Below, in pieces: positions 36,010-40,052 of a stretch of 64,000 nucleotides of DNA. The notes beneath the pieces are model-generated. The model made no database searches and was not told the origin of the DNA. It saw only the letters and a program-made list of their open reading frames with translations. The translations under genes were made by a program, and so were the position numbers. Every line of letters starts with the position of its first letter. The stretch's first letter is position 1. The stretch is from Candidatus Latescibacterota bacterium (lineage in GTDB: Bacteria; Latescibacterota; UBA2968; UBA8231): contig CBDAOB010000005.1 of the NCBI GenBank assembly GCA_965197905.1, forward strand, positions 256,001 through 320,000, in the 5' to 3' direction.

Positions 36010-37806
36010 TTGGGCATAGCCGTCATCGATTTCGGTGGGCAGTACGCCCACCTGATCGCCAACCGCATCCGCCGACTCAAGGTGTTTGCGGAGATACACC
36101 CTCCCACGTCAACCCCAGCTGATCTTGCCGCCGCCGACGGCTTGATTCTGTCGGGCGGCCCCTCCAGCGTCTACGCCCCGGACCAGCCTCGGTACAACCC
36201 CGAAATCCTGCACCTCGAAAAGCCGATTCTGGGTCTGTGCTACGGCCACCAGCTTTTATGCCAGGAGTTCGGCGGGGTCGTCTCTCCGGGGGACACCATG
36301 GAGTTCGGAGCCGCCCATTTGCAGGTGGGGCAAGCGGCCGGTGTGCTCGCTGGATTGGCCGACGAAGAGCCGGTCTGGATGAGTCACCGGGACGCCGTCA
36401 CCGCCCTGCCGACCGACTTCGAAATCCTCGCCAGCACCAGCGACTGCGCGGTGGCGGCGATGGGCGACCTGCAACGCAACATCTACGGCTTGCAGTTTCA
36501 TCCCGAAGTGAGCCACACGGCTTCCGGAATGGAAGTCCTCGACAACTTTCTGGATATATGCGGCAGCCCGCGCGACTGGACCATGGAGCATTACATCAAA
36601 GAGGTGATGGGCCGGATCGAGAAACAATGCGCTGGTCGCAAGGTGTTCCTCCTGGTCAGCGGCGGCGTCGATTCCACCGTCTCATTCCTGTTGTTGAATC
36701 AGGCTCTGGGCGAAGAACGGGTCCTGGGATTACACATCGACAACGGGTTCATGCGCAAGAACGAAACGGCGCTGGTGCGCCGCCTCATGAATGAATCCGG
36801 ATTCCGCAATCTGCAGGTAGTGGAAGCCAGCGCAAGCTTTCTGGATGCCGTAGAGGGTGTCGTCGAGCCGGAGGAGAAACGCCGCCTCATCGGAGCGGAG
36901 TTTCTACACGTTCGCGATCGCGCGTTGCAGGAAATGAAGCTCGATCCGAACGAATGGCTCCTGGGTCAGGGGACCCTCTACACCGACACCATAGAGTCGG
37001 GCGGCACTGAAAACTCGGCGGTCATCAAGACCCATCACAACCGAGTCGACATCATCGAACAGCTGCTGGCCGAAGGCAAGGTGGTCGAGCCGCTGGATCA
37101 GCTCTACAAGGATGAAGTCCGCGAGCTTGGGGAGACACTTGGCTTGCCGCACCACCTCGTCTGGCGCCATCCGTTTCCGGGGCCGGGCCTCGGGGTTCGT
37201 GCCCTTTGCAGCGAGGGCAGCCCGGGAAGCAATGGAATCGCTGACGCAGCGCCGGCCCTGCAGGCGACCGGCGCCCGCTTCGGGCACCTGGAGATCGGAA
37301 TCTTGCCGCTGCAGAGTGTCGGAGTACAGGGAGACTCGCGCACCTACGCGCACCCGGCGGTGATCTCCGGGCGCGCGGATTGGGATCAGCTGGAGGAGCT
37401 ATCCACGGAGCTGACCAACGAGATTCCGCAGATCAACCGGGTAGTGTATCTGCTGGGGCCAGAGGTGCGACCAACACAACGGATAAAACCGGCCTTCTTG
37501 AGTCGCGATCGTCTCGACCTTCTGCGCGAAGCCGATGCCATCGCCATGGATGCTCTCGAACGCCACGGACTCATGACCGAGGTTACCCAGATGCCGACGG
37601 TCCTTGTGCCGCTTTCCTCCAACGGGGTCAACGAGAGCGTGGTGTTGCGACCGATCTCCACCGACGACTTCATGACGGCGCGATTCAGCCATCTTCCGCA
37701 CGCCTTCATCGACGACGTCACCGCTAGGCTATTGGAGCTGGAGGGGATCGAGGCGGTGTTCTACGACGTTACCCACAAACCTCCCGGAACCGTGGAGTGG
37801 GAATAG
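36010..37806 (+). CDS. guaA: GMP synthase (glutamine-hydrolysing)
   Basis: DFGGQY, LSGGP, LCYGHQ, QFHPEV, SGGVDS, IKTHHN, RHPFPGPGL, KPPGTVEWE. Confidence 0.97.
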   Translation: MGIAVIDFGGQYAHLIANRIRRLKVFAEIHPPTSTPADLAAADGLILSGGPSSVYAPDQPRYNPEILHLEKPILGLCYGHQLLCQEFGGVVSPGDTMEFGAAHLQVGQAAGVLAGLADEEPVWMSHRDAVTALPTDFEILASTSDCAVAAMGDLQRNIYGLQFHPEVSHTASGMEVLDNFLDICGSPRDWTMEHYIKEVMGRIEKQCAGRKVFLLVSGGVDSTVSFLLLNQALGEERVLGLHIDNGFMRKNETALVRRLMNESGFRNLQVVEASASFLDAVEGVVEPEEKRRLIGAEFLHVRDRALQEMKLDPNEWLLGQGTLYTDTIESGGTENSAVIKTHHNRVDIIEQLLAEGKVVEPLDQLYKDEVRELGETLGLPHHLVWRHPFPGPGLGVRALCSEGSPGSNGIADAAPALQATGARFGHLEIGILPLQSVGVQGDSRTYAHPAVISGRADWDQLEELSTELTNEIPQINRVVYLLGPEVRPTQRIKPAFLSRDRLDLLREADAIAMDALERHGLMTEVTQMPTVLVPLSSNGVNESVVLRPISTDDFMTARFSHLPHAFIDDVTARLLELEGIEAVFYDVTHKPPGTVEWE

Positions 37807-37807
37807 A

Positions 37808-39052
37808 TCACCTGATCAAGGTGTATTTGCTCTTGCCGCGGCGGATGACCAGAAACTTGCCGTGCAAGCCGTCTGCCTTGCGCAACGCTCGATCCAGCTC
37901 GGTGCACCGCTCTCCATTCACGTAGATCGCGCCATTCTTGATGTCCTCCCGCGCTTGCCGTTTGGAGGACGACACCTTCGACGTTACCAGTAAATCCACC
38001 AGATTCAATTCTTCTTCCACCATCGAGTGCGACGGGACATCGTTGAAACCCTCCTCGATCTCTGCTTCTGCAAGCTCCTGAAGGTTCCCGTAGAACAGGG
38101 CCTGGGAGATCTTCTCGGCGGTCTTGGCTGCGTCTTTACCGTGCACCGTCTCGGTCACCTCGGCGGCCAAGCGGCGCTGCGCTTCCCGCTTTTCCGGTTG
38201 GGAACGAGTAACGTCCTCGATCTTGCCGATCTCCTTCCGGCCCAGGAAGGTGAACATACGCAGGTAGTTCAGGGCGCTGTTGTCATCGCTATTGACCCAG
38301 AACTGGTAGAATTGGTACGGGGAGGTTTTCCCGGCGTCCATCCACACCGCACCGCGCTCACTCTTACCGAACTTGCCGCCATCCGCTTTGGTCACCAGCG
38401 GGTTCGTAAGACCGAACGCCTTCTTGGAGGTAGCGCGGCGAATCAGATCGGAACCCGCTGTGATATTGCCCCACTGGTCCGACCCGCCGATCTGCAGCTC
38501 GCACTGGTGATCCTGCAGCAGGCGGAGGAAGTCGTAGGCCTGCAAGGTCATGTAACTGAACTCGGTGTAGGAGATTCCGGCGGCAAGGCGAGAGGCGACC
38601 GAATCCTTGGCCAGCATGTACGGAATCGGGAAGTGCTTGCCCACATCGCGAAAGAAATCGATCGCCTTTATCTCTCCCAGCCAGTCGTGATTGTTGACCA
38701 CCTTAGCCGGATTCGTCGCGACCTCGAAGTCCAGAATCGGCTCCACCTGCCGGCGAATCCTCTCCGTCCAGGCGGCGACCGTCTCGGCCGTGTTGAGACC
38801 GCGCTCTTCCGAGCGGCCGCTGGGATCGCCGATCAGTCCGGTGCCCCCGCCCACCAGCGCGATGGGGGAGTGGCCGGCCAGCTGGAAACGGCGCAAGACC
38901 AAAATCGGCAGCAGGTTGCCAATGGTGAGACTGTCGGCCGTAGGATCGAATCCGCTGTAGAGCGTGATCGGTCCCGACTTCAAGCGCTCCGGCAATCCAT
39001 CTGTGGACTGGTACAGCAACCCCCGCCATTGTAGATCTTCTAGAATGTCCAT
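37808..39052 (-). CDS. tyrS: Tyrosine--tRNA ligase
   Basis: GFDPTADSL, GGGTGLIGDPSG, EFSY..LQAYDF, QIGGSDQWGN, KFGKS, S4-like tail RRGK. Confidence 0.97.
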   Translation of the reverse strand: MDILEDLQWRGLLYQSTDGLPERLKSGPITLYSGFDPTADSLTIGNLLPILVLRRFQLAGHSPIALVGGGTGLIGDPSGRSEERGLNTAETVAAWTERIRRQVEPILDFEVATNPAKVVNNHDWLGEIKAIDFFRDVGKHFPIPYMLAKDSVASRLAAGISYTEFSYMTLQAYDFLRLLQDHQCELQIGGSDQWGNITAGSDLIRRATSKKAFGLTNPLVTKADGGKFGKSERGAVWMDAGKTSPYQFYQFWVNSDDNSALNYLRMFTFLGRKEIGKIEDVTRSQPEKREAQRRLAAEVTETVHGKDAAKTAEKISQALFYGNLQELAEAEIEEGFNDVPSHSMVEEELNLVDLLVTSKVSSSKRQAREDIKNGAIYVNGERCTELDRALRKADGLHGKFLVIRRGKSKYTLIR

Positions 39053-39071
39053 AGTGCTCTCCGTTTAGAAC

Positions 39072-39099
39072 AAAAAAAACCCCCGAGAATCGGGGGTTT
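39072..39099 (-). terminator. Attenuator terminator in the tyrS leader
   Basis: mRNA AAACCCCCGA-UUC-UCGGGGG-U8, ending about 20 nt before the tyrS ATG. Confidence 0.85.
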
Positions 39100-39130
39100 G
39101 CACAGATCGTCGCGAAACACGTCGGTGATA

Positions 39131-39187
39131 TTATCCCCCGTACTGTTTTTCAAGACGATAATAATAGGATTTCAGCGTCATATTCAT
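39131..39187 (-). CDS. Tyr-rich leader peptide of tyrS (MNMTLKSYYYRLEKQYGG)
   Basis: ATG AAT ATG ACG CTG AAA TCC TAT TAT TAT CGT CTT GAA AAA CAG TAC GGG GGA TAA; alternative ATG at 39181. Confidence 0.8.
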   Translation of the reverse strand: MNMTLKSYYYRLEKQYGG

Positions 39188-39207
39188 TTGCCCGTGGATT
39201 CAATCGG

Positions 39208-39236
39208 AATATAGGGGGCCACGAGACGAACGGCAA
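39208..39236 (-). promoter_or_regulatory. Sigma70-like promoter for the tyrS leader
   Basis: TTGCCG-N17-TATATT on the minus strand, just upstream of the leader ATG. Confidence 0.55.
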
Positions 39237-39260: not shown

Positions 39261-40052
39261 CTATACCATGTCGGTTTCCTCGTTGCCCTTGAACAGGGTG
39301 AAGGTACCACCCTGCGGATCGGACACGACCGCGAAGCGGCCCACAGGGATGTCGGTCGCCGGCACACAAACCTTGCCGCCAAGCTCGGTCACCTTCGCGG
39401 CCCCGCCGTCGACGTCGTCGCAGCCGATATAGACCATCCAGTGCGCCGGGACCTCCGCCGGAAAGTCATCGCCCATGGCGAAAATGCCACCGTTGCCGCG
39501 GTCGCCCACTTTGCCGATGTAATAGGTGCCCATCTCGCCCAGGTCCATCTCTTCGTAGGTCCAGCCCAACAGGTCGCCGTAGAAAGCGCAGGCTTTCTCC
39601 TGGTCGCGGGTTGCCAGCTCGTTCCAGGTCAGCGCGCCATGCTCGTTGAAGACAGTGGCTCCAGTGTGTTCCTTCGGTTGCCACAGGGAAACCACCGCCC
39701 CGGTGGGGTCCTGGATAATGCTCATGCGTCCCGCGTCCATCACGTCCATGACTGGCATTATCACCGTGCCGCCCAATTCGGAGGCGCGCGCGGTTGTAGC
39801 GTCGGCAACCTCGACCAGGATGTAGGAATTCCACACCGGCGGCATCCCGGATTGCTCGGGGTTCTGAGCGCCCATGCCGGCGACATCAACGTCGCCTTTG
39901 GAGAACATGGTATAGAAACCGTACTCGCCGGCGGGCTTGTCCTCGTGGGTCCAGCCAAAGAGGGAGCCGTAGAATGTCTTTGCGGACTCCACGTCCGGAG
40001 TCATGAGATCGCACCAGCAAAACATCGTGGGTTTCAGCTCGACAGCGGGCAT
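39261..40052 (-). CDS. Two-domain VOC/glyoxalase family protein
   Basis: FCWCDL.TPD...FY..LFGW, GRM...DPTGA, WNELATRD, GRFAVVSDPQG. Confidence 0.9.
   Translation of the reverse strand: MPAVELKPTMFCWCDLMTPDVESAKTFYGSLFGWTHEDKPAGEYGFYTMFSKGDVDVAGMGAQNPEQSGMPPVWNSYILVEVADATTARASELGGTVIMPVMDVMDAGRMSIIQDPTGAVVSLWQPKEHTGATVFNEHGALTWNELATRDQEKACAFYGDLLGWTYEEMDLGEMGTYYIGKVGDRGNGGIFAMGDDFPAEVPAHWMVYIGCDDVDGGAAKVTELGGKVCVPATDIPVGRFAVVSDPQGGTFTLFKGNEETDMV

Follow-up and report, generated by a model that had tools for sequence, protein, structure and literature searches.

How is tyrS, the gene on which T-box control was defined, regulated in an uncultured phylum such as the Latescibacterota? The window considered here is the whole 64,000-nt stretch of Candidatus Latescibacterota bacterium assembly GCA_965197905.1 that was analyzed (contig CBDAOB010000005.1, positions 256,001–320,000); coordinates below are those of the window, and the tyrS leader lies on its minus strand. 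The gene is single-copy in the source genome and encodes a tyrosine--tRNA ligase of 414 aa (37808–39052, minus strand; TIGR00234, E 3.6e-123) that starts with the ATG at 39052. A sequence-only reading had proposed that a promoter, a short Tyr-rich ORF and an intrinsic terminator precede this ATG, and all four parts are found on the minus strand where it placed them. The leader stretch is covered by four DNA-contig runs. The upstream neighbor of tyrS on the same strand (39261–40052, minus) encodes a glyoxalase/KbpA-like protein (below the NCBIfam cut-off), and guaA (36010–37806, plus strand) is convergent with tyrS, a single base lying between their stop codons.

The promoter is of the sigma-70 type, with the motif TTGCCG-N17-TATATT (39208–39236, minus strand) and a predicted +1 near 39201, and is the sole promoter-like site in 1 kb (shuffle mean 0.2). 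The leader ORF (39131–39187, minus strand) encodes MNMTLKSYYYRLEKQYGG followed by a stop codon, and comprises 18 codons if read from Met1 and 16 if read from Met3 (39181); the latter start is common to the window leader and that of the closest relative (G002). Its ribosome-binding site is weak. The ORF contains TAT at codons 8–10 (39158–39166, minus strand), which are the candidate regulatory codons in view of the family-wide, frame-specific enrichment of Tyr described below, and TAC at codon 16. The Tyr at codon 16 cannot be regulatory because a ribosome at this position covers the G-tract CGGGGG (39135–39140, minus strand), the predicted 5' strand of an antiterminator. As had been claimed, the G-tract is complementary to CCCCCG at 39096–39091, which forms the 5' arm of the intrinsic terminator (39072–39099, minus strand). 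The terminator is completed by a loop, a 3' arm CGGGGG (39085–39080) and a U8 tract (39079–39072); its hairpin spans 39099–39077 and has a predicted folding energy of -15.6 kcal/mol, and the antiterminator region one of -17.5 kcal/mol. The arrangement of a translational attenuator was not found at tyrS, since the Shine-Dalgarno-like GGAG of the gene (39059–39062, minus strand) lies outside the terminator hairpin and only a weak 6-bp hairpin touches it.

Although the four parts were correctly listed, minimum-energy folds of the window RNA reveal a fifth element that the sequence-only reading overlooked. In these folds a predicted protector helix pairs a 5' strand AUCGUC (39154–39159, minus strand), which overlaps Tyr10 to Leu12, with a 3' strand GACGAU (39106–39111, minus strand). 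The latter strand joins an inner hairpin once the antiterminator forms, and the sequence of the spacer that holds it is not conserved between genera in the alignment.

We examined a Latescibacterota family sample of 76 genomes from 18 genera, of which 70 gave a tyrS match. Upstream DNA was obtained from 69 loci; the N-terminus was missing from one further match. A terminator of the form (G)CCCC(C/U)G...C(A/G)GGGG(C)-U precedes tyrS in 64 of these 69 upstream regions (those of L006 and L008 were set by hand, as the automatic picker chose the wrong helix). Leader ORFs were assigned by a rule blind to amino acids, in which an ATG downstream of the -10 box was preferred and the stop nearest the terminator was taken. 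This yielded a leader in 62 of the 64 terminator-bearing loci, representing 15 of the 18 genera. All 62 contain at least one Tyr codon and 55 contain at least two, counted after correction of L018, for which the blind rule took a Tyr-free frame (a zero in the Tyr statistics) and which was afterwards moved manually to a GTG frame; the other seven leaders carry just one Tyr codon each. The leader frame and the position of the stop are conserved, with ORFs of 13–28 codons that end 23–42 nt ahead of the terminator C-tract. Downstream of the first Tyr codon, 58 of the 62 leaders have a run of at least three G, as does L018 once its frame is corrected; three leaders of genus g18 have no G-run. Promoter-like sites with the consensus TTGACN-N17-19-TATATT/TATTTT are found upstream of 59 of the 62. 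Eleven leaders are probably leaderless because their starts fall within 3 nt of the predicted +1, and ribosome-binding sites are weak, with no 3-nt match in 14 of 51. The Tyr-codon run, G-tract and terminator, for which a search in related genomes had been suggested, are kept across the family, with Tyr codons in 62 leaders of 15 genera. The cassette is real and conserved, and it very probably has a function.

Several of the exceptions have features of their own. Two loci have a terminator and no assigned ORF. The leader of G008 is cut by the contig start, and a 124-nt overlap with the end of another contig completes it with three Tyr codons; G017 has Tyr codons in an open frame that lacks a usual start codon. 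No terminator was found at five tyrS loci: in two genomes of genus g3 the gene lies directly behind another gene, G010 has a Tyr ORF before tyrS and no U-tract, G012 has a tyrS with internal stops, and in G018 the 5' region of tyrS is unclear. Genus g18 (L027, L028, L057, L182–L188) has leaderless-like leaders with only one or two Tyr codons, usually in Arg-Tyr-Arg, and some of its leaders have a very long terminator loop.

One could suppose that the hairpin is simply the terminator of the upstream gene at 39261–40052 and that the Tyr ORF arose by chance. The two genes are co-oriented in the source genome, and similar hairpins of the same terminator type are found in some relatives as ordinary terminators behind tRNA genes. 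However, the upstream flanking gene varies between genera and is often divergent, while hairpin, promoter and Tyr ORF stay with tyrS, and in the window the U-tract ends only about 20 nt from the tyrS start. Chance is further contradicted by the frame-specificity of the Tyr enrichment. Family conservation and this enrichment effectively refute the explanation, to which we assign almost no weight.

The stand-alone Tyr leader was not seen outside the family in the loci examined from sister families f2–f4 and from other classes. No terminator precedes tyrS in 17 loci of f2–f4 (rows L051–L056 left out), and no Tyr leader was seen before it at five additional f2/f4 loci or, in other classes, at 14 informative loci, besides which one locus was truncated. 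The TyrS proteins of the family form one clade (SH-aLRT 100) in a quick tree of 63 rows with weakly resolved deeper forks, and we make no claim of a tyrS transfer from Bacillota on this tree.

The coding content of the leader shows that its Tyr codons are under selection. With one-per-genus weighting over 15 genera, 44.3 Tyr codons are observed and 7.6 expected, a roughly 6-fold enrichment that 0 of 2000 base shuffles reach, although these statistics overstate the significance because the genomes are related and hence not independent. The enrichment is confined to the frame of the leader ORF (44.3/4.4/4.5 in the three frames). Both codons are used and interchange (TAT 115, TAC 67), and in genus g13 the run varies by whole codons, from two to six Tyr. 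Within the source genome we located 147 units consisting of an ATG-initiated upstream ORF, a terminator and a long ORF, and by eye tyrS and trpE are the only genes whose unit has at least three Tyr codons. A terminator lies within 260 nt upstream of only tyrS and thrS among the 15 synthetase-like genes located there. Gly, Thr and Arg are mildly enriched in the tyrS leaders, Gly because of the G-tract.

The enrichment of Arg (45.7 versus 30.0) bears on a different account, in which the same RNA switch operates but the pause is set mainly by peptide context, such as an Arg beside Tyr or an Arg-Tyr-Arg triplet, or by general slowing of translation, such that the leader reports ribosome speed and not Tyr-tRNA alone. 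An Arg directly precedes a Tyr in 37 of the 62 tyrS leaders (14 of 15 genera, using five Arg codons) and in 9 of the 11 aroF leaders described below. A basic-Tyr-basic triplet occurs in 11 of 21 leaders with at most two Tyr codons versus 4 of 41 with at least three, but the former are mostly from genus g18 and are not independent. An Arg-Leu-Arg motif is noted among antibiotic-stalling leaders in PMC8632094. Against this, the rest of the leader peptide is conserved in neither sequence nor length (13–28 aa), which residue is enriched depends on the downstream gene, the window leader has no Arg ahead of its Tyr run, and some leader Arg codons form part of the predicted protector helix. We regard control by peptide context or general slowing as unlikely; the Arg before Tyr may reflect an added pause, a structural role or inheritance.

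In an alignment of 38 sequences the terminator stem is paired in 91.8% of cells and contains 18 compensatory cells, a result reached in 0 of 500 shuffles; together with its presence in 64 of 69 loci, this establishes an intrinsic terminator between the leader ORF and tyrS. A search for compensatory changes had been suggested, and they are evident in the terminator but not in the antiterminator, where covariation is not significant (cognate versus swapped pairs p 0.20; median p 0.19 in a second permutation test) in tests that have low power because the G:C core is nearly invariant.

A trans-acting factor might control the terminator and leave the ORF secondary; candidates would be an RNA-binding protein, the TyrS enzyme or, as for a T-box, uncharged tRNA. 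Precedent comes from Bacillota, where tyrS is controlled by T-boxes: a T-box is given for 25 of 32 tyrS rows listed in the Naville and Gautheret supplement (PMC2965389), and by pattern matching we found a T-box-like motif upstream of 10 Bacillota tyrS loci. However, the T-box model matches neither the window nor the source genome (0 of 57 candidates in an assembly that is 91% complete; control genomes give matches), and the tyrS leader has no Rfam match at the gathering score to the T-box (RF00230) or to the Phe, Trp, His, Thr and Leu leaders. The only Rfam match in the window is a tRNA (tRNA-Val). The leader is also only about 150 nt long, and the alignment shows no conserved structure besides the G-tract and terminator. 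In addition, selection acts on the codons of one frame, with synonymous exchange. We consider this alternative very unlikely.

Folding with a modeled ribosome is consistent with control by translation of the leader. For the window RNA without a ribosome, the protector helix (39159–39154/39111–39106) is predicted to engage the G-tract region. When the ribosome is placed on Tyr8 or Tyr10, the G-tract (39140–39135) pairs with the terminator arm (39096–39091) around the inner hairpin; with the ribosome on Tyr16 or the stop, this pairing is impossible. The predicted pairing of G-tract and arm is about 0.45 while the ribosome is on the first codons, rises to 1.0 over the Tyr codons and is 0 once it has reached about codon 14, and the Tyr run remains in the 1.0 zone for all ribosome footprints of 10–19 nt. 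This footprint model reproduces the two alternative folds that had been proposed: capture of the arm by the G-tract while the ribosome is on the Tyr codons, and its release once the stop codon is reached.

The same behavior is predicted for most of the family. In 56 of the 62 leaders, from 13 of 15 genera, capture of the arm is lower by 0.5 or more with the ribosome at the stop than with it on the Tyr codons, so that by folding the antiterminator and the terminator would exclude each other, the antiterminator being available while the ribosome occupies the control codons and covered when it is at the stop. When folding was restricted to a fixed window, 39 of the 62 leaders passed versus 4 of 187 terminators of the source genome, one of these four being that of tyrS itself; this control is tuned to the spacing of the source genome, and longer windows give 43 versus 4 and 43 versus 3, a shorter one 1 versus 4. 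In most leaders the terminator dominates at equilibrium of the full-length RNA, even when a ribosome sits on Tyr, and the switch must therefore be kinetic. With no ribosome in the model, the arm is captured in 23 leaders of the 62 and stays mostly free in the other 39, and the protector helix is therefore not universal.

Considering the conserved promoter, Tyr-codon mini-gene, G-tract and terminator together, we think it highly probable that this element is a ribosome-dependent transcription attenuator that reads charged tRNA-Tyr. Transcription would start about 150 nt before tyrS, and a ribosome would load on the leader. With ample Tyr-tRNA, the ribosome would reach the stop codon and cover the G-tract, leaving the C-rich arm free; the terminator would then fold and transcription would halt about 20 nt short of tyrS. 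With scarce Tyr-tRNA, the ribosome would pause on the TAT run and cover the protector strand, and the G-tract, now free 17–36 nt ahead, could pair with the C-rich arm before the 3' arm of the terminator is made. The polymerase would then read through, and more synthetase would be produced. Family conservation and footprint folding lend support to the original proposal that stalling at Tyr frees the G-tract and allows read-through. The alternative folds are predicted, and translation of the leader, termination and the response to Tyr are likely by analogy with established attenuator biology.

Comparable leaders precede other genes in the family. Counted by the amino-acid-blind rule as mean codons per leader, not genus-weighted, tyrS leaders contain 2.97 Tyr, 0.18 Phe and 0.03 Trp. 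On the same count, leaders before thrS, found at 24 of 30 loci, contain 9.33 Thr (up to 13–14 in single leaders) and 0.08 Tyr. In the source genome (G000) this Thr-rich leader, which starts at C5:2061143 (minus strand; L220), and its terminator precede thrS, with relatives at L221–L249, and from its sequence the leader appears to be a second synthetase attenuator of the family. A Trp leader attenuator (19 of 24 loci tried, 3.0 Trp per leader) precedes the trpE(G)-trpG-trpD-trpC-trpS operon at G000:C4:1908807 (plus strand; relatives L190–L219), and carries an antiterminator word complementary to the terminator arm.

A covariance model (R1) built from 38 tyrS leaders gave, besides the tyrS leaders, full-length matches with E values of 1e-10 to 2e-6 before a second clade of DAHP synthase (aroF) genes. 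Here the leader occurs in 11 of 14 loci (L308–L310, L368–L374, L384; 11 genomes), with means of 4.0 Phe, 3.91 Tyr and 0.36 Trp on the same count, a terminator of the type seen in the tyrS cassette, and a G-tract close to the stop codon. Of 15 loci sampled from the main DAHP synthase clade none has such a leader, nor does the only DAHP synthase gene of the source genome; in that genome, where 150 of 978 candidates were scored, R1 matches the tyrS leader alone. The second DAHP synthase gene of G063 has internal stops. R1 matches outside the family are weak, and three that were inspected are not leaders. From the codon counts for Thr before thrS, Trp before trpE, Phe and Tyr before aroF, and Tyr before tyrS it follows that leader content matches what the gene handles, and such leaders appear to be in systematic use across the family. 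The tyrS and aroF cassettes likely share descent, but their terminator type also occurs after tRNA genes in some relatives, and their Tyr codons and G-tracts could be convergent.

In two sister families, f2 and f4, tyrS usually stands at the end of a trpE-G-D-C-F run (L250–L254, L276–L305), with exceptions in which it lies elsewhere; the trp operon of the source genome holds trpS in its place. The trp-operon leader of f2–f4 carries Trp, Phe and a Tyr run in 25 of 29 loci (4.32 Tyr per leader). A dependence of the Tyr codons in trp leaders on the presence of tyrS in the operon holds only in part, as G053 and G038 have 3–4 Tyr codons with tyrS elsewhere. Homology between the tyrS leader and the trp leaders was rejected on inspection, since the terminators differ and the antiterminator polarity is opposite.

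It is conceivable, although on balance doubtful, that the family carries a reusable cassette, made up of a promoter, a codon run led by Arg-Tyr, a G-tract located at the stop and a C-rich terminator. Duplication would have placed this cassette before both tyrS and the second DAHP synthase gene, and codon swaps would have retuned it to Tyr alone in the first case and to Phe plus Tyr (plus Trp) in the second. On this tentative scenario it would have arisen when tyrS left the trp operon, where the sister families keep it under a single Trp/Phe/Tyr leader, and the adjacent Arg would act as a pause amplifier that lets even single-Tyr, leaderless versions work. If true, the retuned cassettes would be a set of natural variants from which the making of a new amino-acid sensor, and the minimum that such a sensor requires, could be read.

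The mechanism of attenuation is classical, and leader attenuators have already been described or predicted for several other synthetase genes. In E. coli pheM-pheST, a leader peptide with cognate codons is coupled to a terminator/antiterminator pair, and starvation for charged tRNA raises the synthetase. The tyrS leader likewise places cognate codons and a predicted pair of this kind before a synthetase gene. It differs in having Tyr rather than Phe, in its gene and phylum, in lacking an Rfam leader match, and in being known here from sequence alone. Attenuation of E. coli pheST is documented in PMC11802643 and PMC1262725. Classical attenuators have been predicted for Streptomyces trpS and leuS (PMC1262725) and for Bacillus hisS*/hisZ (PMC2965389), and the attenuator uORFC-8-2 for Rhodobacterales cysS (PMC8632094). 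Like these cases, the tyrS leader is a comparative-genomic prediction of an upstream ORF and terminator in one lineage; unlike them, it concerns tyrosine and has a look-alike cassette before aroF to which Phe has been added.

Tyr or aromatic codons are also found in known aroF leaders. The C. glutamicum aroR leader contains Phe-Tyr-Phe and reportedly responds to Phe, not Tyr (PMC11802643), which indicates that cognate codons do not guarantee a response. Shewanella aroF is listed in a table as having an "attenuator sensing tyr-tRNA" (PMC2659441), and Acholeplasma aroF has uORFC-13-1 (PMC8632094). These leaders match the aroF cassette found in 11 genomes of the family, but they control biosynthesis and not a synthetase, whereas the tyrS leader of the family is Tyr-only. 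The Tyr T-box of Bacillota (RF00230) shares with the tyrS leader the gene, the presumed signal (charging of tRNA-Tyr) and premature termination. It binds uncharged tRNA directly, however, and needs no translation, and the tyrS leader of the family has no T-box match.

The open literature, to which our search extended, yielded no tyrS leader peptide. The gene is absent from the main text of PMC11109978 and from the supplement of PMC8632094. Among the rows listed in a survey table for tyrS, T-boxes are the sole annotated control, and among those listed in the Naville and Gautheret supplement (32 of 36; PMC2965389) are four unannotated tyrS terminators from other taxa. Premature tyrS termini occur in S. 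pneumoniae and S. aureus (PMC13714241), and PMC4833913 is cited for comparison with the tyrS leader. We think that the leader is, with good confidence, a classical attenuator with a new pairing of gene and amino acid. It leaves the understanding of the attenuation mechanism unchanged; a ribosome-read Tyr sensor on tyrS would extend classical attenuation to another synthetase, another amino acid and an uncultured phylum. The 62 natural variants, with one to six Tyr codons in leadered and leaderless forms, and the aroF look-alike provide a test set for codon number and spacing, and the element of about 150 nt is testable in a surrogate host.

A few further observations were made in the course of this analysis. 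A long, structured-looking intergenic region of the source genome (G000:C4:1281600–1282000, plus strand) precedes a 210-aa ORF; its terminator resembles that of the trp leader, and no cognate-codon leader is evident in it. The PF00152 search of the source genome gave no class II lysyl-tRNA synthetase, and the third match (G000:C5:1640650–1641657, minus strand) looks like a short EpmA-type protein rather than a LysRS. In the window TyrS, the class I HIGH signature at residues 43–46 is TIGN, in which the first His is absent. Signatures of the TIGN type without this His also occur in the TyrS proteins of G020, G059 and G149, and other relatives have the His.
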